Assembly: GCA_016722575.1 (NCBI GenBank)
Contig: JADKIY010000001.1
Location: 768,887 to 832,886, forward strand
Direction: 5' to 3'
Length of the DNA: 64,000 nucleotides
Source: Elusimicrobiota bacterium
Lineage (GTDB): Bacteria; Elusimicrobiota; Elusimicrobia; FEN-1173
This document shows positions 23,141 through 41,800 of the stretch, piece after piece (positions within the stretch are counted from its first letter, which is position 1; each line of letters begins with the position of its first letter). The position numbers were made by a program, and so were the translations under genes. The notes beneath the pieces are model-generated. The model did no database searches and was not told the DNA's origin. It saw only the letters and a program-made list of their open reading frames with translations.

Positions 23141-23170
23141 GAAAAAAAATCCCCGCGGAGGGCCGCGGGG
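23141..23170 (-). terminator. Rho-independent terminator downstream of the giant-locus last ORF
   Basis: Minus strand reads CCCCGCGGccctCCGCGGGG followed by TTTTTTTTT. Lies 40 nt past the stop at 23210. Confidence 0.6.
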
Positions 23171-23209
23171 ATCGGGGTGAATCGGTTTACCGTTTGATCG
23201 GCGGTGGAA

Positions 23210-25795
23210 TTACGCCTGGGTCATGATCTTGAGCATCGTCGCGATGTCGTTGGCGATGGCTTCGGAAAGCTTTTGCAGGCCGATGATCAGGAAACCCGCG
23301 GCTTTGGTGACGCTCTCGGCGTTCCGGGCGATGATCCGGGTTCCTTTCATCATTCCCGCTTTCTGGTTTTCCGGCCGGTTGATCCAGGCCACCACTTCCG
23401 ACATGACCACGCGGCCCTCGGCGTCCACCAGCCCCGGCACGCGGCCGGGCGTCAGCACGTGGACCACCGCTTCTTTTTGCACGGCATTGGCGAAGACATC
23501 GTTCAAGGGGTTGGCGCCTTCGGCCGCGACGATTAAATTGGTTCCCGGTCGGACCGCTTCGGCCAGCCCCGTGAGGAAAATCCGCATGTCCTTCTGTTCC
23601 CGGGCGCTCCAACCCATGTAACCAACCAAATTGACGTGGAGGGTGGTGGCCGAATCCTGGGCGGCCCGGGCCCCCGCGGCCAGCAGAGCGCCTTCGGCCA
23701 ATTGTTCCTGACGGGCGGGTTCGTTGATCAGCCGCCGGGCGGCGGCGCGGTCGTTGGAAAGGAGCTGGACGAGGCTTTCGAAACCGCTCAGCCGGGTGGC
23801 GTCGTCCACCGACGTGTATTCCGAACGAAGGTCGTTGAAGTTTCGCGCGGTCCAATAATCGCCGCTTCCGACCGGGGTCGGAATCGTGAAATTGAAGGGT
23901 TCCGCTTTGGAACCCAAAAGCGTTTCCATGAGGGCCAATCGCGCCCAGGCGTTAAAGTCTTCCTCGCCCGTTCCGGGGGACCGGCGGCCGTTGGGCCCCT
24001 TGGGCGTTTCGACGCCCGCGGGCAGACCGAGGGTCGGCGATTTGGGGGTGGCCGGGATCCCCAGGTCCACGGGGAAGGACCGGTTCCGGGCGTCCACAAA
24101 CGTGAGGGTGACCCGTCCGTCCGTCACGCCGACCGTGTAGGTGGTCAACCCGTAGACCGCTTGAACCCGGAAAACCCGTTGGCCGATCAAGGGAACCAGC
24201 CGATTGATTTCGGCTTTGACGGCGCTGTGGTTGGGGCTTAAGAGCGCGGGCGTCGGGGATTCGCGAAGAAGGAAGGACACCACGGCCGGAACGACGTCGT
24301 ACCGCAGCCAGAAGGCGTTTCGCGGAGACAAATTCGTCGCGCCCAGAACGCCCAGGGCCTGGGGATTGTAAAACTCCAGGGCGGCCGGCAATCCGAACCG
24401 TTCGCGAACGCCCGGCCAGTCTTTGGCGGCGGCGTCGATGTAGGGAAGCAGGGAGGAGGCGATCCGGGAATCCTCCGCCAAGGTGTCGGCTTCGGCCGTT
24501 TGGCGGTTGTCCCGGGCGATGTGCCCCGCCTCGTGGCCCCAGGTGTTCAAAAGGCCCACGGCCGTGTTGTTGCGGTCCAAATAAACGACCCGCTTGGCGT
24601 CGGCGTCCGATTCGCCCTTCTTTTTTAAATCGTTGAACAATCCCAGGGCCGGCAAATTGGAGGTGATCACCACCGCGCCGACCTTGGAGGTGTCCAGTTT
24701 CCAGGTGTGGGTCACCTCCAAAAGCCAGGCCAAAATCTTGGCGTCGTCGGCCGTGTTCGCTCCCTCCAAATTAATTTTTTGAAGTTGAGCCGAGGCCTGC
24801 AGAAGCGGGTTGGACTTTGCCATCCATTGCTCGGCCCGCTTGATCGACGCCTCGCTGGGCGCCAACTGGGACATGTCCAGGCGGGCCACTTGGGCCCGTT
24901 CCAGCGTGGCCAGGGGCAGGTTCGGGGTTTCCACGTTGGCTTGGGAAAGGGCCAGGGGGACGCTCAAAAGGTTGAGGGACAGGAGGGCGGCGGTGGCCAG
25001 GCCTTTGACGAAGCCGGTGCGATCGGCCATCCATCGCGCGACGGAATCGCGTACGTTGAGAAGCGCGTGGGCCGCGACCCCGGCGGCCGCCGCCGCGGCG
25101 GTCATCCAATGGGACACGCCGCCGGTCATAAACAGGTCCAGCATCATGAGAGGGACGAAGGTAGTGGACGCGATGGCCGTGGCCCCCACGGCGCGCCCAA
25201 AGGTTCCCGGGGCGGGCTCAAACCGTTTCGTCGCCGGGTTGTAATTCAGAATGCCGCTCACGTAGTGGGCGCCGAAAAGGGCTACTCCCAACGTGGCGTC
25301 GTTCAGCAGATCGGAGCCTTCCGCGTAGCCGGTGAAGGGAAGAAGGAAGTTCACCGCCAGGAGGAGCACCGATTCCAGGGCGCCGAAAAGGGCGAAGGAA
25401 AGGTTTCGGGAATTCCCGAGGGACGGGAACCGGTCCAAAAGGGCGTTGGCCACCGGCGCCCACCAGCCGACGGCGCCGCGGGTCGGGCCGTGGGCGGGGG
25501 CCGCGGCGGCGGGTTTCGTGGCCGAGAAACCAAGGCCGGTTAGCACTTCCGTTTGAATAAACTGGGTCAATTTCGGCCAAAGGGTGTCCGGTTCTTCGTC
25601 GGGCATTTCGATAACGACGAGCTTGTCCTCAAATCCAAGCTTTTTGGCCTGGGCCTTGAGCACCGCGAGGGCCGTGGCGGCGGGACGACCGTCCGGCCGA
25701 AGGGCCTTGGTGTCGACGAAGGCGATCAGGAAGTCGGGTTTGCGGGCGCGCAGGGTGTTCTCGTCGAATTTCGTCGTCGCGGGCGGGATATACAC
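23210..25795 (-). CDS. Giant-locus ORF3: polytopic membrane protein with an M48-like HEAGH zinc-metalloprotease motif
   Basis: 861 aa from GTG 25795. TM-rich region at aa ~130-285. NNTAVGLLNTWGHEAGHIARDN maps to 24521-24556 and resembles the M48 active site. The frame is open upstream to 25964 with no start codon, so it may be fused to ORF2 by a frameshift. Confidence 0.6.
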   Translation of the reverse strand: MYIPPATTKFDENTLRARKPDFLIAFVDTKALRPDGRPAATALAVLKAQAKKLGFEDKLVVIEMPDEEPDTLWPKLTQFIQTEVLTGLGFSATKPAAAAPAHGPTRGAVGWWAPVANALLDRFPSLGNSRNLSFALFGALESVLLLAVNFLLPFTGYAEGSDLLNDATLGVALFGAHYVSGILNYNPATKRFEPAPGTFGRAVGATAIASTTFVPLMMLDLFMTGGVSHWMTAAAAAAGVAAHALLNVRDSVARWMADRTGFVKGLATAALLSLNLLSVPLALSQANVETPNLPLATLERAQVARLDMSQLAPSEASIKRAEQWMAKSNPLLQASAQLQKINLEGANTADDAKILAWLLEVTHTWKLDTSKVGAVVITSNLPALGLFNDLKKKGESDADAKRVVYLDRNNTAVGLLNTWGHEAGHIARDNRQTAEADTLAEDSRIASSLLPYIDAAAKDWPGVRERFGLPAALEFYNPQALGVLGATNLSPRNAFWLRYDVVPAVVSFLLRESPTPALLSPNHSAVKAEINRLVPLIGQRVFRVQAVYGLTTYTVGVTDGRVTLTFVDARNRSFPVDLGIPATPKSPTLGLPAGVETPKGPNGRRSPGTGEEDFNAWARLALMETLLGSKAEPFNFTIPTPVGSGDYWTARNFNDLRSEYTSVDDATRLSGFESLVQLLSNDRAAARRLINEPARQEQLAEGALLAAGARAAQDSATTLHVNLVGYMGWSAREQKDMRIFLTGLAEAVRPGTNLIVAAEGANPLNDVFANAVQKEAVVHVLTPGRVPGLVDAEGRVVMSEVVAWINRPENQKAGMMKGTRIIARNAESVTKAAGFLIIGLQKLSEAIANDIATMLKIMTQA

Positions 25796-28700
25796 TTCCG
25801 GGGGTACGGCCGATACGTTGGCTTTCAGGGCTTCGGCGCGGTAATGCCGCGTCCGCCCAAAACCGTTGGCTCCCAGGCCGGCGGAGAAGAACCGAATCGT
25901 CTTCAGGGCTTCGGGGTCCGGGGCCCAGCAGGACTTTGTTTGCGTCCTCCGGGAAGTCCAGTTTCATCCCGCTGCGCATGGTCAGGGTCGTGACGGTCCC
26001 TTCGGGGGACGTCACTTCCAACCGGGGCAGAATGGCGTTGATGGAGGATTGGAACTGATCCCGCTCGGCGGCCGGGACCAGGGAACTGTTGAATTTGAAG
26101 AGCGCCTTGCGCGCCAGAATTTCGGCGATGGCGCTTCGGCTTTCGTTGTTGGAGCAAATGAACATGCCCGTGACGTGATCGTCCTCGGTCAGCCGCCCGC
26201 CGCGGCGCAATTTTTCGACGCTCGCCCGGAGTTTCGCTCCCGCCCGGGCCAGGACCGCTTTTCCTTCCGCGTCGATGTATTTGGGGGCCGCCGGACCGGC
26301 GGTGGGCGCGTGTCCGGCGGTCAAGGCCGTCCAACCGAAGCGGGCGGCGGCCCGGTTGTGGACGGCGTGGAGGGCCACGCTAGCCAGCGCGCCCAGGGGG
26401 GCCAGGAACAGCCCGCCGAAAGGGTCCATGAAGGCCAGGAGCAAAGGCGCGTGAATGGCCATGCCCCGCAGGGCCAAGTTCCACCGGGTTTGCCGGGTGG
26501 CGGGGGCGGGTTCCAATTCCCATCGGCCCAAACGGTCAACCCCCGACTCCGCGGGCTTATAGCGATAGACCGACCGGTGGGAAAAGCCGAAGGCCACGTT
26601 AACGAGGGCGAAGAGGCCGGTGGCCGCGAAGAAGGAATGATCGATGGAGACGCCGAAGAAGGACCCCAGGGCGCTCATCAAGCCCACGGAGGCGTAGAAG
26701 AAGACGCCCGTAGCGAGGGATTCCACCAAGGGGGCCTTTTCGTTGACAATGCGGTTGAGGTCGGCCGGATTATTCTTGTCGAGGTTGAAGACCCAGGCGA
26801 TCAGGGGCACCAGCCCCGGAATCGTCGCGGCAAGCGGTTTCTGTTCAAAATCAGCGGCTCTGACCAAATTGATGGCGACGCCATGGTAGCCGCCCCAATC
26901 CGCCGGCGGCGTCGATAGGAGAATTTTGTGGACGGTTGGCCGGCTACGCACAAATCGCCGAATGATCTCCGGGGTGGCCAGCGGTGTGGGATCGGTTGCA
27001 CCTGTCACAGCGGCGATCAACTTAAGGGCCTTGCGCTGGACGTCGGGGTGGTTCCTTAGGTATTCAAGGTATTCAGAGACAGCTTGTTCCCCGGGCGATA
27101 CGGGGGCGACGGAATGAGCGAAAGTTGTCACAAGCTGAAGGGGCGAGTCCTCGGGCCGCTGAGCGATGCGAGCCATAATCACTTTTAAATCATCGTTGTT
27201 CATCGGGCGGCCGGTGATTTCCTGGAAACGAGCCCGCCAGGCCTGAATATCTTGAGGCGTGAAAACTCTTACGTTGTTGGTAACAGGCTTCGGTTCCGTC
27301 GCGCGCAGGCGCCCCTCCAATTCGGTGCGCAGGGGCTCCGAGGGGAGGCTCTTGTCGATCGCCGGTCCCATGAGGTCTCTGATGTCGTCGGCGCTCAGCG
27401 TGGCTTTGATTTCAGAATGTTTGTATCGCTCTCTTTCGTCCGGGACGATTTCGCCGTTGGGCAATGCGACCTCCCGGCCTTCAAAGGCCCCATACCGGTA
27501 GCCGAGGCGTCCATGTGAGCGATCGCTAAAACGTTTGTCGCCCCCTGTCCCGAGCTCATGAAACTCAAGCCCCGGGACCTCTCCTATTCCCGCATCGGCC
27601 AGTCTCTTTTCCAGCAACATCCCCAGGAAGATGGCCGAAATCTCGTAAGGTTCAACCGACTTCCCTTTCAATTCGTTCAAACGGAATTTCTCATAGATTT
27701 GAGCTGCAATGGATTGATGCAGGTAGATGGTGATGCCTTTGGCGGCTTGAGTCTCATAATCCTTCAGAAACTCCAGCATTTCAAGGCCGTCGGCGACCTT
27801 GTGCGGTATGTTAAGGTCCCAAAGTACCGGCAGTATTGCGTCCAACACACGATCGGCGTCATCCGGCGTCAGGCTGATATGGAATTTCCAGCCCTGTTTG
27901 TCGCGCGGCAGTTCTCCCATTCGAACATCTGCATATCGCCATCCCCGCATCGGAACATATTTATCCTGCGGGGTTTTGAGGCGGATGGGGTCAGTCCCGT
28001 CCTCGCCCTTCCCGGGGCCCTTTCGGGCGGGCGCGTGCCCGGCGGTCAAGGCCGTCCAGCCGAAGCGGGCCGCGGCCCGGTTGTGGACGGCGTGGAGGGC
28101 CACGCTGGCCAGCGCGCCCAGGGGGGCCAGGAACAGCCCGCCGAAGGGATCAACGAAGGCCAGGAGCAAAGGCGCGTGAATGGCCATGCCCCGCAGGGCC
28201 AAGTTCCACCGGGTTTGCCGGGTGGCGGGGGCGGGTTCCAATTCCCATCGGCCCAAACGGTCAACCCCCGGCTCGGCGGGCTTGTAGCGGTAGAAGGAGC
28301 GGTGGGAAAAGCCGAAGGCCACGTTAACGAGGGCGAAGAGGCCGGTGGCCGCGAAGAAGGAATGATCGATGGAGACGCCGAAGAAGGACCCCAGGGCGCT
28401 CAAAATCCCGACGCCGGCGTAGAAGGCGAGGCCGGTGGCGACGGATTCGACCAGGGGGGCCTTCTCGTTGACAATGCGGTTGAGGTCGGCCGGATTGTTC
28501 CTGTCGAGGCCATAGACTCTGGCGATGAGGGGCACCAGCCCCGGAATCGTTGCGGCCGGCGGTGTCGCGGAACTTTCATTTAAGAAGGCATCCAATTGAC
28601 GTTTAACGTTTTTGTTTAACTGCTGCCAGTAGGAAAGACTTTGTTCCCACTCGTTGTAAACCTTGTCGTTGGCGAGGACGTCGGCCACGGCGTCCCCCGT

Positions 28701-28805
28701 GGCTTCAATGTATTTTTGAACGGAAACAAGGAAATCGCGACCGGCTTCGGATTGAATGGCGGAAAGGATTTCCCGATCAACGGTGCGGTCGTCGATCATT
28801 CCCAA
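25629..28805 (-). CDS. Giant-locus ORF2: membrane protein with two near-identical copies of a ~170-aa His-rich four-TM module flanking a ~420-aa soluble region; CX5R(S) motif near the C-terminus
   Basis: 1058 aa from TTG 28805 or ATG 28799. Modules at aa ~85-257 and ~660-832 are ~95% identical. CSNNESRS (C-x5-R-S) maps to ~26150. The last ~60 aa are Arg/Pro-rich and look like an out-of-frame tail. Confidence 0.6.
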   Translation of the reverse strand: MGMIDDRTVDREILSAIQSEAGRDFLVSVQKYIEATGDAVADVLANDKVYNEWEQSLSYWQQLNKNVKRQLDAFLNESSATPPAATIPGLVPLIARVYGLDRNNPADLNRIVNEKAPLVESVATGLAFYAGVGILSALGSFFGVSIDHSFFAATGLFALVNVAFGFSHRSFYRYKPAEPGVDRLGRWELEPAPATRQTRWNLALRGMAIHAPLLLAFVDPFGGLFLAPLGALASVALHAVHNRAAARFGWTALTAGHAPARKGPGKGEDGTDPIRLKTPQDKYVPMRGWRYADVRMGELPRDKQGWKFHISLTPDDADRVLDAILPVLWDLNIPHKVADGLEMLEFLKDYETQAAKGITIYLHQSIAAQIYEKFRLNELKGKSVEPYEISAIFLGMLLEKRLADAGIGEVPGLEFHELGTGGDKRFSDRSHGRLGYRYGAFEGREVALPNGEIVPDERERYKHSEIKATLSADDIRDLMGPAIDKSLPSEPLRTELEGRLRATEPKPVTNNVRVFTPQDIQAWRARFQEITGRPMNNDDLKVIMARIAQRPEDSPLQLVTTFAHSVAPVSPGEQAVSEYLEYLRNHPDVQRKALKLIAAVTGATDPTPLATPEIIRRFVRSRPTVHKILLSTPPADWGGYHGVAINLVRAADFEQKPLAATIPGLVPLIAWVFNLDKNNPADLNRIVNEKAPLVESLATGVFFYASVGLMSALGSFFGVSIDHSFFAATGLFALVNVAFGFSHRSVYRYKPAESGVDRLGRWELEPAPATRQTRWNLALRGMAIHAPLLLAFMDPFGGLFLAPLGALASVALHAVHNRAAARFGWTALTAGHAPTAGPAAPKYIDAEGKAVLARAGAKLRASVEKLRRGGRLTEDDHVTGMFICSNNESRSAIAEILARKALFKFNSSLVPAAERDQFQSSINAILPRLEVTSPEGTVTTLTMRSGMKLDFPEDANKVLLGPGPRSPEDDSVLLRRPGSQRFWADAALPRRSPESQRIGRTPGSVYPARDDEIRREHPARPQTRLPDRLRRHQGPSAGRSSRRHGPRGAQGPGQKAWI
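26309..26828. repeat. ~520-bp direct repeat, copy 2 (encodes a four-TM His-rich module)
   Basis: Near-identical to 28034-28553; the six-frame side ORFs 26321-26539 and 28046-28264 translate almost identically. Copies are separated by 1725 bp. Confidence 0.8.
28034..28553. repeat. ~520-bp direct repeat, copy 1 (encodes a four-TM His-rich module)
   Basis: See 26309-26828. Confidence 0.8.
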
Positions 28806-31800
28806 GTTGCGAGGGGCGTTCTTTCAGGCCGGGGCCCTCCCAGTGGCGCGCAATATCAAACAAGGTTTTAACGGTTTGCCGGGCCAGGCCGGGATCCATC
28901 CGGCCATGGGCTTTGATCTCGTGGAGCGTTTGCCCCTCGACAAATTCTTCGACGTACCATTGGATCTGCTCTTTGCCGTCGGGCGTTTCAATGAAATCGG
29001 CAAGGCCGAAGCGGGGCGTTCCGTGGCCTCCGATGGATTTCAGGGCATCAAGCTCTCCACGTGCGGGTCTTGAAGGCACAGGTTTTCTTTGGGAATTACG
29101 GACATCTTTTCCTTCCGCGACATAGGCGATGTCGAATTGGTCGGTCAAGTCGGTGGACGAAAGGGGAACCTCCAGGATCCGGCGAATCAGCATGGCGGCC
29201 GTCCCCTTGTCGACTTTCGTCAGAATTTCGCCGGCGGTGGTGGATAGGTCCGCCAGGCGCCGAGCCGTATCGGCCGGTTTTTCTCCGGGTTGCGTGGCGT
29301 AACGTCCGGCGATGGCGAACCGTCTAAAAGCACCGGCGGAGGACGAGGCCGGCCCTCCCGCCGTCATCGCCCGCCAGCCGAAATGGGAGGCCAGTTCGTT
29401 GTGGACGATGTGCAGGACGACGGAGGTGGCGGCGCCCAGGATCGTCACGAGGGGGCCTAGAAGGGGGAAGAGGTTTGTCCAGAGCAGCGGGGAGTGAATG
29501 GCCATTCCGCGCACGGCCAAGCTGAGGCGGGTGCCCCAGGAGGCAAATTTCGGTGTGCCGTCGGGGTTCGACTCGACTTCCCATTGGCCGTCCCGGTAGG
29601 TGTACACCCGGGCGTGAAGGGCGCCGAAGGCGAGGTTCGCCAGGGCGAAGAGCGAGTATTGGTTGAAAATCGTCGGATTCAGGGAAACCGGGACTCCGAG
29701 GAAACCGGAGACGATGACGTCCAGGTTGGACATCAGCACCATGGCCCCGAAATAGAAAAGACCGAAAAGGGCGGATTCGACGAAGGGGGCTTTTTCCGTC
29801 ACGATCTTGTTCAGGTCTTCCGGGCTGTTGGGGTTCAGCCGGTAGAGGCGGGCGATCAGCGGGACGAGGCCGGGGATGGTCGCGGGCGGGCCGCGATCCC
29901 GGTGGACGTTGGGGGCCGCGCCGGTTTTTAGAATGGGGATTTCGCCCCGGCCGAACCGGACGGCTTGATTGTAGAGGGTCAAGGATTGGTAGGCCAACGA
30001 AAGCAGTTTGGTCGGATTGGTTTTGACCCCGAACATGGGGAAATGCGAATTCGCGTTGTGAACGGCGGCGTATTGGAACGGCCAATAAAGGTCCAAGAAG
30101 GCCTTTTCCCGGGTGTCAACGGCGTAAATATCCGAAAGTTCGGGTTGGGACAAGGACACGTGGTTCGACCGTCCCAGGAGAACGTCGACCTTGAACGGGG
30201 TCGATTCACGCCCCCGTTCCCTGGTGGCGAAATATTCAATGACGGATTTGACGAACAGCGCGGATTTCCCGGACCCGTAAGTGTCCACCACGACAAAGGA
30301 CCGAGTCATCGGCAAGCCGCTGGAGCGGAATTGGCGATAAATTTGATTCGCGTAGTCGGCGAAAAGCGCGTCGCCTTCGATGAGAGCCGCTGTTTTTTGC
30401 TTGAATTTTTCCTCGATCCCCTCCCGAACGGCCGCCGATTTAATGCCCAATTGATCGAAGGGGAATAGACCTTCGGCGACGATTTCCCTAAAACTCTCGT
30501 CCATGATGTTCTTGATGGATTTGATGATTTGCGACAATTCTTTGTCGTCGTTGCGGCGATTGGGGCCCACCGGCGTGAATATGCCCGGATGGTAAACCAC
30601 GGCGGCGGCCGACGTTTGGTCGTTCAGTTGGTCCGTGTAGCGACGGAATTCGTTAATGGACAAGGCGTCGCGGGCCAGGAAGATCGGCACCTGCCCCGTT
30701 TCCTGAAGGCGCGCCACGACGTACGGCGCGAAGGCGACATGACTGTCGACGGCTTCCTGGTCCCGGGTGACGACGTCCGGGGCCAGCAATTGCCGCAATT
30801 CTTCCCGGGCGTGCAGGAAGGAGTCCCGGTTGACCTGGTTCGACCCGCCCATGAGCATCAGCCAGCCGGAGAGAATTTGATTGATTTCGTTGTCGGTGAA
30901 GACCCGGGGGCGTCCTTCGGCGTCCTTGGGAAACTGGTCCGCGTCCAAGGCCCAAGGCAAAGCCGCCAAGTCTTTCAACTGGAAAAGGCGCTCCTTTCCA
31001 AAAAACCGCTGGTGGTTGGCGAACAAACTCTGGGCCACGGGATGGGGGGTGAGCACAATGATCTTGGTGGATTGGAAAAAGCTTTCAATGCTCCCGGCCT
31101 TCCACCAATTCCGCATTTCGGGTTGGCGAATCAAGGACGCGTCGTGGATGGGGATGTTCCCGGGGGCCCATTGTTCGCCCGGCGTTCCCCGGCCCCGCAC
31201 TTGAATGAGTTCCGTGCCCTCAAAGGCGCGGCCCAGACGTTTGACGACGTTGCGGATGGCGATGTCTTGTAGGTGGCGGGCCGGCGTGTCGCCCTGCTTG
31301 GTGTAGTCCCCGCCGCTGGCCACGTTGGACGGAGCGGTGTCGTAGACGTCGCGCGCCATTTTAACCAGGCGGTCCAGTTCGTCGGGATGGGACTTGAAAT
31401 ATTGATAGTAGCCTTCTTCGTAAAATTCGTAGGCCCTTGATTCGTCCACGATTTGGTCGTTAATGACGTGCTTGATGGACCAGCCGCTGGGGCCGAACCA
31501 TTCGTCCAGCCGCGCCCGAATCGCCGGGGCGTTGTAGCCGAAATATCCGGGGCGAAAGAAGTCCTCCTTGGCGTATTCTTGTAAGAAATCCGCCAAGGAC
31601 ATTTTGACCAGGCGCTTGGCGTTGCTGGGGGGGCCTTGGTCCCCGTTGGCCGCGGTGGCGGCCGTCCAGCCGAACCGGGCGGCCAATTGGTTGTGGACGA
31701 CATGGAAAGCGACGCTGGTCAGAGCCCCCAGGGGGGCCAGGAAGAGGCCGCCGAGGGGGTCCATGAAGGCCAACAAGAGGGGGGTGTGAATGGCCGCGCC

Positions 31801-34800
31801 CCGGAGAGCCAACGCCCAACGATCGCGGAGGGACGCGGGGGCCGGTTCGGCCTCCCAGCGGCCCGTTCGGGTGACGCCCGGGAGGGGCGGCTTAAAGCGA
31901 TAAACCGACCGGTGGGAAAAGCCGAAGGCCAGGTTGACCAGGGCGAAGAGGCCCGTGGCGGCAAAGAAGGCGTGGTCGATGTGAAAGCCCACCGCGGAAC
32001 CCAGGGCGCTCAGGAGTCCCACGGCGGCGTAGAAGAAGACCCCCGTAACGACGGTTTCGACGAGGGGGGCTTTTTCGTTGATAATGCGGTTCAAATCCGC
32101 CGGGTTGGCGGGATTGAGTCCGTAAAGCCGGCCAATCAGGGGAACCAACCCCGAAATCGTCGCCGCCGGAGGCCCCCGGGGCGCCCCGGTGGACGTGGGG
32201 GCCAAGGTCCCGTTGGCGGACTGTTCGTCCAAGAGGACGACGTCGTTGCCAACGATGGATAGAGAGAATTGGTTGCGGGAAATGCCGCTGGTCGGGCCGA
32301 CGCCCAGGTCCTCCCGGCCGAATTGAAGGGTTGCGCCGGTCCGTCGATGGCCGTTCGGGAGAAGCAGAGACAATCCCCCTTCGGGGGTCGACTCCAGCAC
32401 TAGGTGGACGCCATTGACGACGAGGGGCACGGGCAGATGTTTTCGGGGGATGTTGACGGCCCCCGCGTTTTGGGACGGGCCGCCCAGGAGTGCCGTTGCC
32501 CGGACGTTCCTCCAGGCGTCAACGAGGGCGGTCAGATACTCGGCGGAGAAGGCTTCGATTCGCCCCGGGGTTTGATTGCGTTGGAGGGAAGAGACGGTCT
32601 GCTCGAGGGCATACACCTCATCGGACAACGGTTCGTTGGCCAATGGCCGGCCGAGCGCCGCCAAGTGGTCGTTCAAACGAGTGTCCAAGTGAAGCCGGAC
32701 GGTCCGCATTTGGGCCAGGTCGTCTCCCAGCTCCAAGTTCCCGGAATCTCCCCGGCGCAGGGTCCCGGCGGCCGACACACGCTGCCCCGCTTCGTCCCGA
32801 ATATCCGAAAGGGTGTAGCGGGCCGATCTCCCGCCCTCCGAGGCTTCGATGTCCACGGCCACGGCAAAGGCGGCGGCGTTTTGGATGTCGCTTAGGACGA
32901 CCGCCCCGTCTTGGGGGACGACGCGAATTTTGTCGCCTTTAATGTAAACGTCCAGGGGGATCCGAAGGGCGCGGCCCTGGGCCAAGATTCCCAAATCCCC
33001 CCGGACCGAGGCCAGAAGGGTCGATTCCAATCGTTCCCGGCCGGAATTTCCCTCTTCAGCGGGGCTCACGTCCACCGTGGTGTTGTTGGGTGAAAAGTTT
33101 TCCACCGTGGCTTCGCTGCCCGACCAGGCCAGGGCGGCGTGTTTGCGGGAAACTTCCACGCCGCTCAACCGGAGCGTGCGTCCCTCGGCGGCGGTTTGGC
33201 GGCCCAGAGTCAAGGATTCCCCGGGTTGAAGGACTTCCCGGCCTTCGGGGCCGGTGGCGATCAATCGGTTTCCCTCGAGCGAGAGGGAAACGCGGTTTCC
33301 GCTCAACACCAGGACCGAGGGGAAAGTGCCCAGCCGGCGGGGCCCCGACGTTGGCGTGAGAATCGTGTTCCCCGTGATGGCGGGGACGACCGGCGCGACC
33401 GGGGTCTCGACGACGGGTTCCGCCGGCCGGGTGATCCGCAGGGCGTTGTTCAGGAAGAAGTCGGCCGTTCCCTGCCGTTCGTTGGTGACGCCGAAATCGA
33501 AGTAGGCTTCCGGGATGACGTTCCAGGTTTTTTTAACGGTCTCATTGTTGAATTCCGCCGCGCCGTCCCCCGGCTGAAAACGGGCGCGTCCCGCGGAGGC
33601 GGGGGCCAAAATCACGCCGGGGGTGAGGCGGGCGAGCTGTTCCCAGGCGGCCTTCCAAACGGGACTCAAATCGTAGCCCGAGGCGTTGTAGTCGCCGAAA
33701 ACGAGAACGCCCTGATCGGTCATCACCAGCACCACGTTGGCGATCATGGCCCCGGTGGCTTCGTCGTAGGCCATGGCGAAGGCGGAGTTGGATTCCAGGG
33801 CGTGGGCCACGGGCATTTCCTGGTGGCCGCCCCCGAAGGGATTGAAGCACCCCGGAACCCGGTGCCCGGCGGCCACTTCGTCCAGGAGGCTTTTCTGGAT
33901 TTTCACCGAGACCCGGGCCCGGGCGTCGTCTTTTAGTTTCTGCGTGGCCAAGAGGGACCGGAGGGCGATGAGGATTTCGTTGAAGTGGAGTTGAATTTGG
34001 AGGAACCGTTCCTCGGGGTTTTCCACGCCGTCCCGGGAGAGGCGGTCGATGGCCTCGTCCCGTTGGCCGAGGATCCGCTCGTTCACGAATTGTTCGGCGG
34101 CGGCGTAGGTGTCCAGGGCGTCGGCCGTTTGCGCGGCTTCGGCCGCCTTGACCAGTCCCAGGGATCGGGCGATCTGGACCAACTGTTCGGTTTGCCTCTG
34201 AACCTGGACAATCCGTTCCTGGGCCGACAGCGGGGCCACGTCCTGGGCCGGGACGACGATTCCCCGGTCCCACAACGCGGGGGAATAGCCCGCCGCCAGA
34301 AGCGCGGCCTTGGCCTCGCCGTTGCCGGGGATTTGGGCGAGGTTGTGCGCCGCGGCGGCGGCGTTCGCCGCCTCGGCCGTCCCACCGTTGCGGAGCGTCT
34401 CCAGCCAGGTCGTGACGGCCGACTTCAGCCGGTCCGCCAACCCCGCCGTTTCCCCGGTCGGGGCGCGCTCCGGCCGCAACGACGTGGTCAAGGACGTGGC
34501 CACGATCAGTTGCGTCAATTGCCGCTGGTCCAGCTTCTCCAAAATGGGAGCGTTTTCCTCGCCGAAAACCTCCAGAACCGCCTGCCGCTCGGCGGCGGCG
34601 ACGACCGCCTCGACCGTCCTAGCCAGATTTTTCGGTCGGAGCGACCCGCCGGCGAAAGCGGCCGCCAAGGCGCGCATGGCTTCCAGGGAAGGTTCGAGTT
34701 TTTCCCGGGAATTGGCTTCCGCGTGAAGTTTAAGAAGCAGACTCCAACGGTAAAAGGTTTCGATCAAACGGTAATAGTCGATGGCCGGGTCGGTGCGTCG

Positions 34801-37800
34801 AAGGAATTCGAAAAACGGATCCCTTTCGCTCCAATAGGGAAGGCCCGCCAGGGCCTCGTCCAACAGTCCCACGCTGGGAACGCGGTTTTTCTCCGCCAGG
34901 AACATCAATAAATCCAGGGAAGCCGCGGGGCCGATGTGGCGGGAAAGGGCCCCGTCCACGTGATTGATGAGATGACCCTCTTCCGGCACGCTCCATCGCT
35001 CGGCGATTCCCCGAAGCCGCTCGGCCAGGGCCGCCATGCGCTCGGGGCGGGCCGTTGAGCTTCCGGTGTTCCGTGCCGTCGTGGCCAGGGCCCGGGCGGC
35101 AAAACCCATGAAGGATCCCTCGCTGGAGCGGATTTTTCTCGGATCGACTCGGACGCCGAGGGTTCCCAGCAAAGCGATTTCCTCCGGGGACAGGGCGCCA
35201 AGGTGTTTCAGGTCGTCGCTGGGAATGTTCAGGGCCCGCAAGGTTTTGGTCCGCTCGAAGGCCTGGACGAAGGCCGGGGCCTGGGCCAGGGGGCCTTTGA
35301 GCGGGCGATCCCGGGTGTCCTCCCAGGGGCTGAACGCCGATTCCAGGGCTCTTTCCACTTCGCTCGACAAATTGAAGCGCGCGCTCTGACCGGCCACGGC
35401 CAAATCCGCCAACAAGGGTTTTTGAAGATCCGGGTAGACCAACCCGAGCAGCAACAGGCCCACCGCGGCCTTTTCCTCCGTTTGGTATCGGGAGGGTTTA
35501 TCCCCTTCAAAGAGCAGTTCGGAAAGACCGGTAAAAAATTCCAGAGGCGCCGTTTCACTTTCGCGGCCCACGGGGGATCGGGCCAGCAATTCCAGGAAGT
35601 GGACCTTGGTGAGGCCGAAAATCATGCCCTCGTTTTCCCGTACAAATTGCGATTTGAGAACCCGCTCGATGGCCGCCGCGCTTTCCCCGGGGTCGGGGGA
35701 GGACAGCAGTCGGTTGCCGAGGGTGTTTTGAATCGTTTGTGATTTTGTCTGATCGAAAACCTCCCCCAGGAGGAAGGAGATTTTCCAGAGAGTCTGGGCG
35801 TCCGGTCCCTCGGTCAACAATTTGGGGGAGTCCGCCACGCGCTGGAAATAGAGTTGACGGAATTCCCGGTGGAGGCGTTGTAGGTCGGCGGGGGCGGACA
35901 GAAGAGCCTGGGTGGCGGCGCCGAAATCGGCCCCCTCTTTAACCAGAACGTGTCCCGCGAGGGCGATCATGGCCCGCTCGGACCGGTCGTAGGCGTCCAT
36001 GCGGTCGAAAAATTCACCGAGTCGAACCAGCGCCTCCGGATTGGATATCGCGTGGTGGACGATCCTCTCGGCCATGACCTCCCCGGGGACGGGCACGTCT
36101 TGGGTGGAAGTTCCCGCGCCTTGGCGGGCCATGTTCAGAAGCCGGTTCAAGGCCAGGGCCAGTTCGGGCTTTTCGTTCAGCCGTTGGTCGGGGGCCAGAA
36201 GGCGATCGAGTCCGGCGAGGGCCGTGGGCGAGGTGAATTTTCCGTACCTTCGGAGATTGGACAGGCCGGCCAGGTGGTCTTCCGTTGATCCCGTCAAAAA
36301 GGCGCCACCGCCGCGGCGTTGGGCCCAGTTGACCCCCGCGTGGCCCAAAACGCCTACCGCAAAGCCCCCGACGACGGGACCGAGAACGGAAGACGAGACC
36401 CCCGCCAGTTCTTGCAAACCTTGAAGGGGCGCGGCCCAGAAATGGGATGTTCCGAGGGAAAGAAGCGTGTTTCCCAATTCCCGAACGAGGAGGGGAAGGT
36501 TTTGAATGATTTCGGTTGGGCCGAAGGCGGCAAAGGAGGGGACAAAGGCGCCTGTCAAAAAGACCGTGACGGCCAAGGACGCGACTCCGAAAGCCGTGAA
36601 CAGGGAAAAGATGCCAAGTCGATCGAGGGGGGTGGCTTCGCGTTGTTGAAGAGCTCCGTCTTTCCCGTAGTAGTAGACCTGTTTGTGCGTTGCCAACGTG
36701 ATTTTGGCCGCGACGACCAAGGCGGCGGTCAGGGACCAAGCGGGAGAACCCGCCAGGAGAAGAATGGGGTAAACGTACAGGAGAAACCGGGCGTTCTCGC
36801 CGAAGGGGGCGGACCATAAAACCGTGCGGGCGGGATCGGTGCGCATCGATCCGGCGTAGTTCCCGGAGAAAAGCGGCCGACGCGCCAAGTCGCTCAAAGC
36901 GGAGCGGGCGCGGACCACGACCGATTCGGTCAGAGCGCCGGGGAGGGCCGCCGCACGGGCGAATAAGCCCGACATTCGGGAGGCCAAACCGCCGACCAAA
37001 GCGCCGAAGGCGGCCACGACCGATCCCGTTCTCCGAACCATGTCCACGGCGTGGCCGTTGCCCAGATCGACGTGGCGGTCGGCGGCCCCGTGGACGTTGT
37101 CGCAGGGCTCCAGGGCCTCGGCGGCCGATACGGATACCGCGCGGACGCCGTTTTGCAGGACTTCCTGGGCGCCGTGAATAAACCGGGGGGTTTCGCCCGT
37201 CGCGTCGGCCAGGGCGATGGGGTGGGAAAGATAAATGCGGTCGCCGGCGACCAATTTTTCCAGGGGAACGGGGTCGTGGGCCAGGATGTCCAGGTAATCG
37301 CTCTCGCCGGGGACGTCCGTGATTTTAGGCGTGACCACGACGTAGGAAATTTGTTTTTGCCGGAGAAGGCCGGTCAATCCCTCGGTGTGGAAGCCGCCGG
37401 CCACGAGCACGCCGGTGGTGGTGCCTTTTTCGGCCATTTTAGCCAGGAGGTTGGCCACCAGGGCGTCGTTTCGACGGACGGCGTAGGAGCAGAAATCCTC
37501 AAAGGGCTTGAGCGTTTCAACCGTCAGGGACGGGAGCCGGGCCACCGTCGGATCCAGGGCCGCCAGGCGGTCCCGAAGGGCCAGAATCTCGGGCCGGCGC
37601 TTTTCGTAGGCCACCCAGTCGGGCATGGCCATTTCGTGCCGGAGCATTTTTTCCAACAGGGCCAGGTCCCGGGCGATGTTCATTAAGGCGGTTTCGGCGG
37701 GGGTTTTGGCCAGGGAATTTTGGGCGGCGATTTCCAACTGGTCCAGTTCGGCCACGAGCTCGTTGCGGCTGATCTTCTCCGCCAGCAGGACGTAGGTGAT

Positions 37801-39099
37801 GTAGCTGGAGAGTTGGCCGAAATCGTCCAGGCGAATTTTGTTGTCGGCGCAGACCTGGCGCAGGTGGCGGTGGTAGTCGCCGTAGCCCATCCGGCCCGTG
37901 CGGTAATCGATGCTTCGGGCCACCAAGTCCTGGAGGGCCGGTTTCGACAGGCGGCGGACCAAAACTTCCACCAGGCGTTGGCGCTCGGTTTCCACGGCCT
38001 TGAAATCGAGGTTTTCCTCCCAATCCAGGGCGTTCAGCATCAGGCGGACGTTGGGAATGTCCAGGCGCCCGTCCCGGCCGCCGGGGGTTTTGACCAGGGC
38101 CCGGACGTAGTCGCCCAACTTTTCCCGCTGGGCCTTGTAGGCTTCAAAATGCCGGTCGAAGTTCTTGAGGCCTTCGGAGAAGGTTTTTTTCTTTTCCTGG
38201 TCGGCGACGGCCCGCAGGGTGGCCAGGGTGGCGAGGAGGGTGGTTTTGGTCTTGAAAGCGGTTTTGAGGGCTTTGACGTTCCCTTCGTAGAGGGCCGAGT
38301 CTTCCGCGCCGTAGAAGGCCGGGGCCTGGGGCAGGGTGAGTCCGGCGTACTCGGGCCCCGCGATCAGGCCTTTAATCAAAAGGAAATCGGCGATGTCTTT
38401 GGTGATGGACGAATCGGGGTAGGTGCGGTAGGGGTCCAGGGTGAAGGAGCCCGAGGCGCCTTCCAGTCCCACCAGGTTGACCCGGCGTTCCTGCATGAGC
38501 GCCCCGAGCATGGCGGAGATGTTTCGCTGGGCTTCCTCGATGCCGTGGGCGTCTTGGATGTGAACGACCACCGGGGCGTTGGCTTTGGGGGAGAGGTAGA
38601 CGTCCCGCACCCAGCCGTAGGGCGTGACCAGCTTGCCCAGCCAGTCCTGGGGGGCCGTTTTGGTGGGGGGGATCTTGGCCAATTCTCCGGGGGTGGAGGA
38701 AATGGCGGATCCGCCGGCCGAGCCCAGGTCCATCCGGACCGCCTGGGGGATTTGGGACAAGAGCATGTTGCCCTCTTGCCCCAGGTCGATCCCCTCGGAT
38801 TCCGGCGGCTGCATTTTGCGCGCCGCGACCCGACGAGCGCTCCAAAAGTTTTGCTCCTGGGCGTAGACGCCGAGGACGTTGCAGAAAAAGAAGGAGGCCG
38901 CCAAGGCGCCGCCCAGGGCGGACCGAAGGCCCGCCGAAGGTCGGAGGAGCCGTCGCTCCTTTGGAGCGCCGACTGTCCCCGGAGCTCCGCGAAGGGGGCG
39001 GAGGAGCCGTCGCTCCTTTGGAGCGCCGACTGTCCCCGGAGCTCCGCGAAGGGGGCGGAGGGACGGGAGAAAGCGAAGTAAGGCTTTGGTTTTCGTCAT
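28777..39099 (-). CDS. Giant-locus ORF1: 3440-aa multidomain membrane protein (signal/TM, possible TraB/GumN-like domain, TM block, long helical regions, 2x FHA, 2x four-TM His-rich module)
   Basis: Uninterrupted 10.3-kb frame with protein-like composition throughout. FHA signatures are LTLGRQ...VSRKHAALAWSG...NFSPNNTTVD and LQFGRED...ISRNQFSLS...LLDEQSANGT. Modules ATI[PS]GLVPLI...IDH[SA]FF...FGFSHRS...H.VHN are at ~31645-32165 and ~29350-29910. VHIQDAHG and VLVAGGFHTEGL resemble TraB/GumN family motifs (weak). Confidence 0.7.
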   Translation of the reverse strand: MTKTKALLRFLPSLRPLRGAPGTVGAPKERRLLRPLRGAPGTVGAPKERRLLRPSAGLRSALGGALAASFFFCNVLGVYAQEQNFWSARRVAARKMQPPESEGIDLGQEGNMLLSQIPQAVRMDLGSAGGSAISSTPGELAKIPPTKTAPQDWLGKLVTPYGWVRDVYLSPKANAPVVVHIQDAHGIEEAQRNISAMLGALMQERRVNLVGLEGASGSFTLDPYRTYPDSSITKDIADFLLIKGLIAGPEYAGLTLPQAPAFYGAEDSALYEGNVKALKTAFKTKTTLLATLATLRAVADQEKKKTFSEGLKNFDRHFEAYKAQREKLGDYVRALVKTPGGRDGRLDIPNVRLMLNALDWEENLDFKAVETERQRLVEVLVRRLSKPALQDLVARSIDYRTGRMGYGDYHRHLRQVCADNKIRLDDFGQLSSYITYVLLAEKISRNELVAELDQLEIAAQNSLAKTPAETALMNIARDLALLEKMLRHEMAMPDWVAYEKRRPEILALRDRLAALDPTVARLPSLTVETLKPFEDFCSYAVRRNDALVANLLAKMAEKGTTTGVLVAGGFHTEGLTGLLRQKQISYVVVTPKITDVPGESDYLDILAHDPVPLEKLVAGDRIYLSHPIALADATGETPRFIHGAQEVLQNGVRAVSVSAAEALEPCDNVHGAADRHVDLGNGHAVDMVRRTGSVVAAFGALVGGLASRMSGLFARAAALPGALTESVVVRARSALSDLARRPLFSGNYAGSMRTDPARTVLWSAPFGENARFLLYVYPILLLAGSPAWSLTAALVVAAKITLATHKQVYYYGKDGALQQREATPLDRLGIFSLFTAFGVASLAVTVFLTGAFVPSFAAFGPTEIIQNLPLLVRELGNTLLSLGTSHFWAAPLQGLQELAGVSSSVLGPVVGGFAVGVLGHAGVNWAQRRGGGAFLTGSTEDHLAGLSNLRRYGKFTSPTALAGLDRLLAPDQRLNEKPELALALNRLLNMARQGAGTSTQDVPVPGEVMAERIVHHAISNPEALVRLGEFFDRMDAYDRSERAMIALAGHVLVKEGADFGAATQALLSAPADLQRLHREFRQLYFQRVADSPKLLTEGPDAQTLWKISFLLGEVFDQTKSQTIQNTLGNRLLSSPDPGESAAAIERVLKSQFVRENEGMIFGLTKVHFLELLARSPVGRESETAPLEFFTGLSELLFEGDKPSRYQTEEKAAVGLLLLGLVYPDLQKPLLADLAVAGQSARFNLSSEVERALESAFSPWEDTRDRPLKGPLAQAPAFVQAFERTKTLRALNIPSDDLKHLGALSPEEIALLGTLGVRVDPRKIRSSEGSFMGFAARALATTARNTGSSTARPERMAALAERLRGIAERWSVPEEGHLINHVDGALSRHIGPAASLDLLMFLAEKNRVPSVGLLDEALAGLPYWSERDPFFEFLRRTDPAIDYYRLIETFYRWSLLLKLHAEANSREKLEPSLEAMRALAAAFAGGSLRPKNLARTVEAVVAAAERQAVLEVFGEENAPILEKLDQRQLTQLIVATSLTTSLRPERAPTGETAGLADRLKSAVTTWLETLRNGGTAEAANAAAAAHNLAQIPGNGEAKAALLAAGYSPALWDRGIVVPAQDVAPLSAQERIVQVQRQTEQLVQIARSLGLVKAAEAAQTADALDTYAAAEQFVNERILGQRDEAIDRLSRDGVENPEERFLQIQLHFNEILIALRSLLATQKLKDDARARVSVKIQKSLLDEVAAGHRVPGCFNPFGGGHQEMPVAHALESNSAFAMAYDEATGAMIANVVLVMTDQGVLVFGDYNASGYDLSPVWKAAWEQLARLTPGVILAPASAGRARFQPGDGAAEFNNETVKKTWNVIPEAYFDFGVTNERQGTADFFLNNALRITRPAEPVVETPVAPVVPAITGNTILTPTSGPRRLGTFPSVLVLSGNRVSLSLEGNRLIATGPEGREVLQPGESLTLGRQTAAEGRTLRLSGVEVSRKHAALAWSGSEATVENFSPNNTTVDVSPAEEGNSGRERLESTLLASVRGDLGILAQGRALRIPLDVYIKGDKIRVVPQDGAVVLSDIQNAAAFAVAVDIEASEGGRSARYTLSDIRDEAGQRVSAAGTLRRGDSGNLELGDDLAQMRTVRLHLDTRLNDHLAALGRPLANEPLSDEVYALEQTVSSLQRNQTPGRIEAFSAEYLTALVDAWRNVRATALLGGPSQNAGAVNIPRKHLPVPLVVNGVHLVLESTPEGGLSLLLPNGHRRTGATLQFGREDLGVGPTSGISRNQFSLSIVGNDVVLLDEQSANGTLAPTSTGAPRGPPAATISGLVPLIGRLYGLNPANPADLNRIINEKAPLVETVVTGVFFYAAVGLLSALGSAVGFHIDHAFFAATGLFALVNLAFGFSHRSVYRFKPPLPGVTRTGRWEAEPAPASLRDRWALALRGAAIHTPLLLAFMDPLGGLFLAPLGALTSVAFHVVHNQLAARFGWTAATAANGDQGPPSNAKRLVKMSLADFLQEYAKEDFFRPGYFGYNAPAIRARLDEWFGPSGWSIKHVINDQIVDESRAYEFYEEGYYQYFKSHPDELDRLVKMARDVYDTAPSNVASGGDYTKQGDTPARHLQDIAIRNVVKRLGRAFEGTELIQVRGRGTPGEQWAPGNIPIHDASLIRQPEMRNWWKAGSIESFFQSTKIIVLTPHPVAQSLFANHQRFFGKERLFQLKDLAALPWALDADQFPKDAEGRPRVFTDNEINQILSGWLMLMGGSNQVNRDSFLHAREELRQLLAPDVVTRDQEAVDSHVAFAPYVVARLQETGQVPIFLARDALSINEFRRYTDQLNDQTSAAAVVYHPGIFTPVGPNRRNDDKELSQIIKSIKNIMDESFREIVAEGLFPFDQLGIKSAAVREGIEEKFKQKTAALIEGDALFADYANQIYRQFRSSGLPMTRSFVVVDTYGSGKSALFVKSVIEYFATRERGRESTPFKVDVLLGRSNHVSLSQPELSDIYAVDTREKAFLDLYWPFQYAAVHNANSHFPMFGVKTNPTKLLSLAYQSLTLYNQAVRFGRGEIPILKTGAAPNVHRDRGPPATIPGLVPLIARLYRLNPNSPEDLNKIVTEKAPFVESALFGLFYFGAMVLMSNLDVIVSGFLGVPVSLNPTIFNQYSLFALANLAFGALHARVYTYRDGQWEVESNPDGTPKFASWGTRLSLAVRGMAIHSPLLWTNLFPLLGPLVTILGAATSVVLHIVHNELASHFGWRAMTAGGPASSSAGAFRRFAIAGRYATQPGEKPADTARRLADLSTTAGEILTKVDKGTAAMLIRRILEVPLSSTDLTDQFDIAYVAEGKDVRNSQRKPVPSRPARGELDALKSIGGHGTPRFGLADFIETPDGKEQIQWYVEEFVEGQTLHEIKAHGRMDPGLARQTVKTLFDIARHWEGPGLKERPSQLGNDRRPHR
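32180..32420 (-). other. FHA domain 2 within giant ORF1
   Basis: ...LQFGREDLGVGPTSGISRNQFSLSIVGNDVVLLDEQSANGTLAP carries the G-R...S-R/H...N-G-T FHA signature. Confidence 0.6.
33060..33330 (-). other. FHA domain 1 within giant ORF1
   Basis: ...LTLGRQTAAEGRTLRLSGVEVSRKHAALAWSGSEATVENFSPNNTTVD carries the same FHA signature. Confidence 0.6.
38944..39057. repeat. 57-bp in-frame tandem duplication near the 5' end of giant ORF1
   Basis: gaggagccgtcgctcctttggagcgccgactgtccccggagctccgcgaagggggcg x2, with a partial copy upstream. Encodes LRPLRGAPGTVGAPKERRL x2, just before the predicted signal/TM segment. Confidence 0.8.
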
Positions 39100-39213: not shown

Positions 39214-39558
39214 TTAAACGCCGAAGGATTCGCCGCAGGAGCAGGTGGCGGTGGCGTTGGGGTTCTTGAAGAGAAATCGGCGGGAAAACATCTTGTCTTC
39301 GTAGTCCAGGGTGGTGCCGGCCAGGTAAAGCAGACTTTTTTTGTCCACATAAACCGTGACGCCGTGGGCGTCCACCCGGTGGTCGGTTTGGGGGGCGGGG
39401 CCCACCAGGGGTTCCAGGGAGTAACTGAACCCCGAGCAGCCGCCCGCCGTGACTTTCACCCGCAGGGCCTCGGCGCCTTGGCCTTTTTCGGCCAAAAGCT
39501 TTTTGGCGCGCTGGGCGGCGCGTTCGGTTACGTCAAAGAGGGCTTGGGTTTCGATCAC
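39214..39558 (-). CDS. HesB/IscA-family Fe-S cluster insertion protein
   Basis: ...VTAGGCSGFSY...C-terminal TCSCGESFGV (Cys-x-Cys motif). GTG start. Confidence 0.85.
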   Translation of the reverse strand: MIETQALFDVTERAAQRAKKLLAEKGQGAEALRVKVTAGGCSGFSYSLEPLVGPAPQTDHRVDAHGVTVYVDKKSLLYLAGTTLDYEDKMFSRRFLFKNPNATATCSCGESFGV

Positions 39559-41785: not shown

Positions 41786-41800
41786 CGGAGGAATGATTTT

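Follow-up and report, generated by a model that had tools for sequence, protein, structure and literature searches.

Three adjoining reading frames of an Elusimicrobiota bacterium appear to be fragments of one giant gene with a repeated membrane module and variable cargo domains

A 64,000-nucleotide (nt) stretch of the genome of an Elusimicrobiota bacterium (contig JADKIY010000001.1, positions 768,887 to 832,886; the window in what follows) carries on its minus strand, at 23210-39099, three head-to-tail open reading frames (ORFs) of 3440, 1058, and 861 amino acids (aa). The locus raises the question of whether these are three genes or one, and of what so long a chain is made of and might do. 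A sequence-only reading of the window had described three contiguous ORFs overlapping at their junctions. Their sizes and coordinates are as described there, with overlaps of 29 nt between ORF1 and ORF2 and 167 nt between ORF2 and ORF3, but the orthologous locus is in a single frame, and the ORFs appear to be fragments of one ancestral gene of about 5,300 to 5,700 codons. The product of ORF2 is identical to MBL0349436.1 (IPP68_03540), a GenBank "hypothetical protein" from an 851-kb contig of an Elusimicrobia metagenome-assembled genome (MAG). Three "hypothetical proteins" of a public MAG would thus be pieces of one gene, a lesson for annotation.

In a separate metagenome, the orthologous locus lies on two contigs, L003 and L004, with outer flanks 88% identical to those of the window in nucleotide sequence and with gene order and orientation kept. 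The first contig holds an open ORF of 4764 codons that runs off the contig end. The second, which lacks the lyase cassette described below, holds a single-frame ORF of 1736 codons comprising the C-terminal part of ORF1, the beginning of ORF2 together with the final ORF2 module and the CX5R region, and the whole of ORF3. Because the orthologous locus reads through both junctions in a single frame, the comparison argues for one gene, not three. Two frame-breaking deletions appear to have split this gene into three ORFs and to have destroyed two cargo domains (Table 1). Lost at junction 1 is the segment for the catalytic loop and the DFG-like portion of a kinase-like domain, whose N-lobe is short of a further 63 nt. 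The last ~97 codons of ORF2 are out of frame and rich in Arg, Pro, and Gly; the ORF3 frame encodes there the second half of the CX5R domain. Two other origins of the frameshifts were considered and rejected: a single-base homopolymer error as the only cause, given differences of 128 nt and 8 nt and clean flanks, and programmed +1 frameshifting, given that the orthologue keeps its frame through the two junctions.

The giant region is genuine coding sequence under long-term constraint. Its G+C content at third codon positions (GC3, 0.72 to 0.80) follows the same bias as that of the surrounding genes. Ratios of nonsynonymous to synonymous substitution rates (dN/dS) against the orthologous locus range from 0.05 to 0.17 in all segments, ORF2 and ORF3 included, and are the same before and after the breaks; these ratios mostly record the history before the breaks and do not date them. 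It is most improbable that the locus is an assembly artifact in which repeated modules were collapsed or joined into a chimera. The modules are indeed long, near-identical repeats, the record is a MAG, and the same repeats broke two short-read assemblies of relatives, in which contigs L001/L002 and L003/L004 end inside the gene, but flanks, order, and orientation recur in the independent metagenome, purifying selection acts on every segment, the contig spans 851 kb, and the flanking genes show no excess of gaps other than multiples of three. In the ~10-kb flanking alignment to the orthologue, almost all gaps are such multiples, indicating that the assembly is not generally error-prone. Mis-assembly of repeats, a concern voiced in the sequence-only reading, is countered by the existence of a syntenic orthologue. 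The breaks in the two independent assemblies of relatives, which fall at or near module repeats, also make it likely that public MAGs capture this family incompletely, with its members under-represented or in fragments.

That the locus in the window is a decaying pseudogene, with nothing made past the first frameshift and the whole gene perhaps on its way out, is a real possibility, although we lean the other way. Against decay, the ~1,900 codons past the first shift are free of stops, and ORF1 alone keeps the leader and head, three of the modules, and the bulk of the cargo. In favor of decay, the frame is disrupted twice, the core of the kinase-like domain is gone in addition to its 63-nt loss, the second half of the split CX5R domain has no start codon to use, and inspection of the sequence revealed no convincing ribosome-binding site before the ORF2 or ORF3 starts. 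The low dN/dS downstream, equal to that upstream, speaks against decay without being decisive, mostly reflecting pre-break history. ORF1 probably still yields a truncated protein.

Comparison with relatives suggests that the gene belongs to a rare, undescribed Elusimicrobiota family in which the head and the modules are conserved and the cargo is variable. The giant relatives are 4,200 to 5,570 aa long, the upper value being reached in the P0030 cluster, and all giant relatives have the leader, the head, and the modules in common. P0030 itself (4850 aa) carries a PP2C domain and, by sequence reading, several kinase-like domains and an HExxH region. In P0058 (4875 aa; contig L006, 2870-17497), two modules enclose AceK (with its regulatory and kinase domains), malate synthase, and isocitrate lyase, and an aldo-keto reductase is present as well; this protein appears to combine the glyoxylate shunt and its regulator in one membrane-threaded polypeptide. 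The neighborhoods of the relatives consist of housekeeping genes.

Cargo also differs between close copies, as revealed by comparing the window with the orthologous locus and with the same gene in a GTDB Elusimicrobiota MAG. The differences comprise an extra ~680-aa cargo with a module after M1, a ~630-aa segment with an HD-like motif that replaces ORF1 residues ~950 to 1900 in the orthologue, an insert located after the head and before the first module, absence of the lyase cassette, and, on one contig, a different kinase-like cargo. Pfam returned nothing above threshold for the strain-specific cargo of the relative. Where a comparison could be made, the switch points appear from the alignment to sit at conserved module ends, which fits gain and loss of cassettes through recombination between module repeats. 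The DNA sequences of M3 and M4 are 95% identical over 300 nt, with 63 identical bases, and such near-identical module DNA would serve as crossover sites at which cassettes of cargo plus module are gained or lost. A C-terminal "tail" domain shared among family members had been suspected by eye and was not supported by phmmer.

The chain opens with a duplicated 19-aa motif, correctly perceived in the sequence-only reading and traced here to a perfect 57-nt tandem repeat. This repeat adds two Arg-rich 19-aa units to the N-terminal tail; the orthologue on L003 has neither copy, indicating that the duplication is a recent strain-specific insertion. The signal or transmembrane (TM) segment proposed in the same place is present as a hydrophobic leader, and its pattern of a mid-helix Asn followed by NFWxxRR is common to the closest relatives. 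The head behind the leader is, judging from its predicted structure, a fold-level member of the TIKI/Ere/ChaN/TraB superfamily, and the earlier suggestion of a TraB/GumN-like domain holds at that level. In an AlphaFold2 model built on homologues, the confidence score (pLDDT) of the core is mostly >90, and a helical insert of ~290 aa splits the fold. The fold is the alpha/beta one with a parallel beta-sheet core that ChaN, Ere, Bcr135/136, HopBA1, TraB, and RRSP have in common, and the structural neighbors of the head include HopBA1, RRSP, and PMT. No Pfam family matched the head at an E value of ≤1, TraB/GumN, Erythro_esteras, and Cofac_haem_bdg included; NCBIfam gave no match, nor did a profile search against the sequences of the Protein Data Bank (PDB). 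The 24 head homologues found come from Elusimicrobiota and Omnitrophota MAGs, are all annotated as hypothetical, and lack Pfam domains; several are stand-alone proteins of 580 to 810 aa. Invariant positions of the head are Q182, D183, H185, E213, R543, and GGFH571, with D183, H185, E213, and H571 retained in 24/24 sequences. The D-x-H...E...H arrangement recalls the catalytic 2His/2Glu set of RRSP (E3900, H3902, E3930, and H4030; PMC6254334), with the same His-to-Glu spacing of 28 residues as between H3902 and E3930 (PMC6254334), a correspondence matched by sequence position alone, in which the first acidic residue is Asp rather than Glu. The head thus has its fold in common with TIKI, Ere, ChaN, and the TraB-PrgY-GumN proteins and differs from them in this Asp, in its large insert, in matching no curated model, and in opening a protein of several thousand residues.

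One short head-bearing protein, P0151 (807 aa), lies on contig L005 (JGI Ga0558121_00751, 151167-173590) and consists of a head and one module-like block. It stands in a same-strand row of very large genes (>1457, 1872, 1297, and >2540 aa), none of which contains a canonical module; the first of these large genes has PPDK_N and PEP-utilizer domains.

The chain carries six membrane modules: four canonical copies of ~180 aa, which are 47 to 89% identical, and two divergent ones. A repeated His-bearing module of four TM helices had been noted before, as four copies. The TM blocks of ORF1 and ORF3 were tentatively read as divergent modules from motifs recognized by eye, with hhalign E values of 0.16 and 0.013. 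The canonical module is found two to four times in the giant proteins P0030, P0147, and P0058 (4200 to 4875 aa). Across 15 modules, the elements AP..E, N, FG..H, G.W, H.P, and H...N are invariant, and the boundary motifs PPAGAIPG(VV) upstream and GWxAAT downstream are kept even where the overall identity of two modules is no more than 28 to 40%. The AlphaFold2 model of the module displays four long helices and a hairpin. Pfam, NCBIfam, and the PDB gave no match to it. Searches through a word index, run with a single module and with the alignment of 15 modules, came back empty though an exhaustive library holds relatives, and are uninformative on rarity.

Between the modules lies the cargo, most of which is orphan. 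Two FHA domains, as previously read, were recovered by Pfam (PF00498, E value of 6.8e-07; 23.3 bits for the whole of ORF1 and 30.1 bits, in two stretches, for the segment, against a cut-off of 20.7). The lyase cassette matches RamC_N (PF25816; 43.8 to 47 bits, cut-off of 27, E value of 2.7e-12) over profile positions 21 to 97 of 191, and NCBIfam matched LanL/LanKC models over the same stretch (1e-11 to 1e-10). Its GWK.HIS motif recalls OspF/SpvC phosphothreonine lyases as well as LanL/LanKC; unlike in the lanthionine synthetases, the match here covers no more than the N-terminal ~40% of the profile, and kinase and cyclase domains and a precursor-peptide context are absent. For the kinase-like domain, Pfam gave no match, and a profile built from the orthologue and paralogue copies weakly matched small Ser/Thr kinases of the PDB (E values of 0.004 and 0.018). 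The CX5R motif that had been pointed out is present as C-SNNES-R-S, in a domain that resembles low-molecular-weight protein tyrosine phosphatases (LMW-PTP) and scores below the cut-off of Pfam LMWPc (13.2 versus 23.2 bits, E value of 0.1); the intact orthologue copy had no Pfam match. Beyond FHA and RamC_N, searches of Pfam, NCBIfam, PADLOC, and PDB sequences gave nothing, in line with the view that this combination is not a characterized system. In particular, nothing significant was found among solved structures by sequence searches with the head, S6, the ORF3 C terminus, or ORF1 residues 961 to 1900. The HEAGH motif of ORF3 is there, but its assignment as an M48 protease was rejected, since Peptidase_M48 did not match at an E value of ≤1, whereas a true M48 gene of the window, the positive control, scored 2.6e-36.

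The soluble region between the first two canonical modules, S6, measures 575 aa, not the ~700 aa first estimated. Its N-terminal ~170 aa (31045-31560; ORF1 residues 2514 to 2685) attract most of the 389 hits in the clustered library, each hit being a cluster at 50% identity. This domain, with the motif RPGYFG...W...YE..Y...VYD..SNV.SG.DY..Q....H.QDIA.RR...QIRG...WW...S.E.F.QS.K, is often free-standing as a protein of ~185 aa, its carriers include P0013-P0150, and it has no Pfam, NCBIfam, or PDB match. Several of its proteins start with classical signal peptides, among them the multidomain P0005, P0006, P0008, and P0009. In these, short interdomain motifs with the look of linkers or processing sites were seen by eye: DGG[GRK]K at least six times in P0005 and [AST]GLEE in P0006, P0008, and P0009.

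What might such a chain do? On balance, we favor the reading that the gene encodes a membrane-tethered, cassette-exchanging multi-enzyme protein, partly decayed in the window, whose function we infer. Over the 15 modules, the mean number of Lys plus Arg residues is 5.4 in the N-terminal flank, 0 in loop 1, 4.3 in loop 2, 0 in loop 3, and 1.8 in the C-terminal flank. This asymmetry and the even number of helices would place every cargo on the same face of the membrane; by the positive-inside rule this is most likely the cytoplasmic face, which would fit cargo that depends on ATP and metabolites. The protein would tether phospho-signaling and metabolic enzymes (FHA, kinase-like, phospho-lyase-like, and phosphatase-like) to the membrane. 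The invariant residues Glu, His, His, and His-x3-Asn of the module lie at the cargo-facing ends of the helices and suggest a metal or hydrolytic site, which might cut the chain at the conserved boundaries (PPAGAIPG... and GWxAAT).

Several observations weigh against this proposal. The leader resembles a signal sequence, the more distant head homologues and several S6-domain proteins start with classical signal peptides, and P0058 and P0151 have no convincing helix between the head and the first module; with a signal-like leader and no helix after the head, the head and all cargo could therefore be extracytoplasmic. Most cargo being orphan, a signaling scaffold is read from few recognizable domains, among which the kinase-like (E value of 0.004) and LMW-PTP-like (E value of 0.1) calls are both weak. 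No family or fold match supports a catalytic role for the module. The frameshifts, finally, may be sequencing errors on top of in-frame deletions, both of them adjoining CCCC runs. Between an extracytoplasmic array and a leader that in this subfamily is a non-translocating anchor, we lean toward the anchor, which would explain the conserved RR behind the leader. An Arg pair directly after a hydrophobic leader is atypical for Sec substrates.

The converse view, in which the leader is a true signal sequence, the modules insert into the membrane, and the head and cargo stand outside the cell or are delivered to a host or prey, as in MARTX toxins or the giant surface proteins proposed for Omnitrophota, appears unlikely. 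It draws on the signal-like leader and on the signal peptides of the distant head and S6 homologues, and the structural neighbors of the head include the effector domains HopBA1, RRSP, and PMT. OspF-type lyases are known as effectors, and strain-level polymorphism of cargo is typical of conflict systems. However, the absence of Lys and Arg from loops 1 and 3 would, under the positive-inside rule, put the cargo in the cytoplasm, the cargo of relatives includes AceK, malate synthase, and isocitrate lyase, the RR behind the leader is atypical for a Sec substrate, and no secretion-system genes adjoin the giant gene at any of the three loci examined (the window and relatives; 3/3). In favor of export, giant proteins with many TM helices from related phyla have been read as weapons acting outside the cell (10.1101/2023.11.21.568195). 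The secreted, surface, or host-interaction role put forward in the sequence-only reading is thus disfavored by the charge distribution of the modules, the cytoplasm-type cargo of relatives, and the housekeeping neighborhood.

Another doubtful explanation takes the giant ORF as a means of co-expression, not as a scaffold: a self-processing polyprotein in which the TIKI-like head or the modules cleave at module boundaries and free the enzymes. In its favor are the head, which retains a complete set of catalytic-type residues of a hydrolase/protease superfamily, and P0151, a short member made of the head and a single module-like block. CPBP/Rce1 proteins carry the motifs EExxxR, FxxxH, and HxxxN/D on their core helices. 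The module follows their motif order and helix placement, with Glu (AP.VE[ST]) at the start of helix 1, FGxxH at the end of helix 2, and HxxxN on helix 4, all invariant; the second Glu and the Arg are absent. Conservation of PPAGAIPGVV and GWxAAT is in keeping with cleavage sites but is equally explained by constraints on folding or insertion or by recombination, and no similarity of the module to CPBP/Rce1 or to any protease could be detected. CPBP/Rce1 membership is not supported, all the comparisons of sequence models and folds that were run having failed.

A combination of these ideas, rather improbable to us, would be an undescribed gene organization: a membrane-embedded, self-processing polyprotein with strain-exchanged cassettes that recombine through the modules and are cut by the TIKI-like head or by the Glu/His/His/Asn metal site of the module. 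If true, bacteria would have an equivalent of viral polyproteins or of MARTX toxins that serves the cell's own signaling and metabolic enzymes.

The closest described phenomenon is that of the giant, TM-rich, enzyme-studded proteins of Omnitrophota and other PVC-related phyla. The papers on these "Archaeovorins" describe them as very long, rich in TM helices, carrying enzyme domains that include central-metabolism enzymes, and mostly unannotated, and Elusimicrobia are named among the lineages (West-Roberts et al. 2023, 10.1101/2023.11.21.568195; Nielsen & Lui 2026). The likeness lies in a long ORF from a candidate phylum, TM helices interspersed with enzyme domains, and scarce annotation. The differences are those of size (10 to 147 thousand aa [kaa] versus 5 to 6 kaa here, ~5.3 kaa combined in the window) and of content: unlike in those giants, Pfam detected no SecA_DEAD, dockerin, or TSP3 in the giant gene, whereas the TIKI-like head and the single repeated four-helix module bounding every cargo belong to this family and were not found in the text of the Archaeovorin papers as far as consulted. 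The words "CPBP" and "polyprotein" have 0 occurrences each in the West-Roberts preprint (10.1101/2023.11.21.568195). MARTX toxins similarly combine exchangeable enzymatic domains in one giant chain, with strain-variable content and a TIKI-fold domain (RRSP); here, membrane modules rather than cleavable linkers separate the domains, the cargo includes housekeeping enzymes, and RTX repeats, a cysteine protease domain, and type I secretion genes were not found in the giant gene or its neighborhood. RHS/polymorphic toxin, MARTX, and adhesin identities were rejected, Pfam and NCBIfam detecting none of the domains expected of them (RHS/YD or RTX repeats, CPD, Ig-like or cadherin repeats, or a C-terminal toxin), and the adhesin and RHS alternatives that the sequence-only reading had left to profile searches thereby received no match. 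An anti-phage defense system was likewise rejected, no PADLOC model matching. Apart from the modules, the only repeats in the giant gene are short tandem ones.

Genomics of candidate phyla has a known blind spot for giant genes that are rich in TM segments and mostly lack annotation. Giant membrane-threaded proteins as such are already known, but the grammar of a head, a repeated module, and exchangeable cargo was not found described in the literature searched. With 5 to 6 kaa, one head, one repeated module, and exchangeable cargo, the family is small enough to study, and this clear grammar makes the purpose of the fusion, the processing of the chain, and the shuffling of domains testable. Why would AceK, malate synthase, and isocitrate lyase, or sets of kinase, phosphatase, and FHA domains, be fused into one membrane-threaded chain? 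Is the chain processed into separate proteins, and how are domains shuffled between strains? Two of its building blocks, the four-helix module with its invariant Glu, His, and HxxxN and the ~170-aa domain of S6, are missed by current databases.

Table 1. Features of the giant gene in the window (positions from the first letter of the window; residue numbers are those of the ORF named)
Feature	Position	Strand	Description
ORF1	28777..39099	-	3440 aa, ATG start; ends with 17 out-of-frame codons; leader, head, divergent module, orphan ~970-aa region, two FHA domains, M1, S6, M2, kinase-like remnant
ORF2	25629..28805	-	1058 aa, TTG start; end of kinase-like domain, M3, phospho-lyase-like cargo, M4, N-terminal half of CX5R domain
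ORF3	23210..25795	-	861 aa, GTG start; frame open upstream to 25963; C-terminal half of CX5R domain, divergent module, HEAGH region, ~300-aa C-terminal region
57-nt tandem duplication	38942..39061	-	Perfect, 2.1 copies, 100% match; encodes repeated 19-aa Arg-rich motif of N-terminal tail
Hydrophobic leader	38830..38928	-	aa 58-80 with mid-helix Asn, then conserved NFWxxRR (aa 84-90)
Head core	37303..38625	-	aa 159-599; TIKI/Ere/ChaN/TraB-like alpha/beta fold (predicted) with large helical insert
Divergent module, ORF1	36310..36813	-	aa 763-930; keeps AP..E, ..TH, HxxxN (HAGVN); lacks His of TM helix 3
Orphan region	33400..36309	-	ORF1 aa 931-1900; no family or solved-structure match
FHA domain 1	33067..33213	-	ORF1 aa 1963-2011
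FHA domain 2	32197..32328	-	ORF1 aa 2258-2301; placed from GR...SR...SxNGT motif
Module M1	31624..32178	-	ORF1 aa 2308-2492
Cargo S6	29899..31623	-	ORF1 aa 2493-3067, 575 aa, orphan
Module M2	29338..29898	-	ORF1 aa 3068-3254; most divergent canonical copy, 47-52% identity
Kinase-like remnant	28569..29337	-	Across ORF1/ORF2 junction; lacks Gly-loop/Lys and catalytic-loop/DFG-like segments
Junction 1 (ORF1/ORF2)	28812..28833	-	20 nt versus 148 nt in L004; net -128 nt, frame +1
Module M3	28023..28568	-	ORF2 aa 80-261
RamC_N/OspF-type phospho-lyase-like cargo	26844..28022	-	Pfam match 27714-27941, motif QGWKFHIS; plus ~290 orphan residues
Module M4	26289..26843	-	ORF2 aa 655-839
CX5R (LMW-PTP-like) cargo	25511..26177	-	P-loop FICSNNESRS in ORF2 frame (26133-26162); SAGLG..., DFLIAFVD in ORF3 frame
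Junction 2 (ORF2/ORF3)	25923..25946	-	Net -8 nt versus orthologue, frame +1
Divergent module, ORF3	25019..25396	-	aa 134-259; keeps ALES, FGAH, RFEPAP, HALLN
HEAGH motif	24521..24535	-	Kept in orthologue; no peptidase-family match
Intrinsic-terminator-like hairpin	23148..23173	-	11 pairs, 8 G-C, then T-run; 37 nt past ORF3 stop

The giant gene appears to have its own terminator, a strong hairpin followed by a T-run. Its neighbors are chromosomal housekeeping genes: RmuC, RadC, def, fmt, an HtpX-type M48 peptidase, RlmN, Rho, MurA-like, and GlmM-like. The HtpX-like gene, which is the true M48 gene of the window, lies at 41786-42688 on the plus strand, between fmt and rlmN and 2.7 kb upstream of the giant gene. 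Two further ORFs of the window, at 46334-48409 (minus strand, 691 aa) and 57342-59351 (plus strand, 669 aa), have a high GC3 and no Pfam match at an E value of ≤1e-5. The gene immediately upstream of the giant gene (~39214-39400, minus strand) encodes a product ending in ...CSCGESFGV, by eye an iron-sulfur assembly protein of the IscA/HesB type, and a hairpin, AAGGGC-TTTTTC-GCCCTT, sits between this gene and the start codon of the giant gene.

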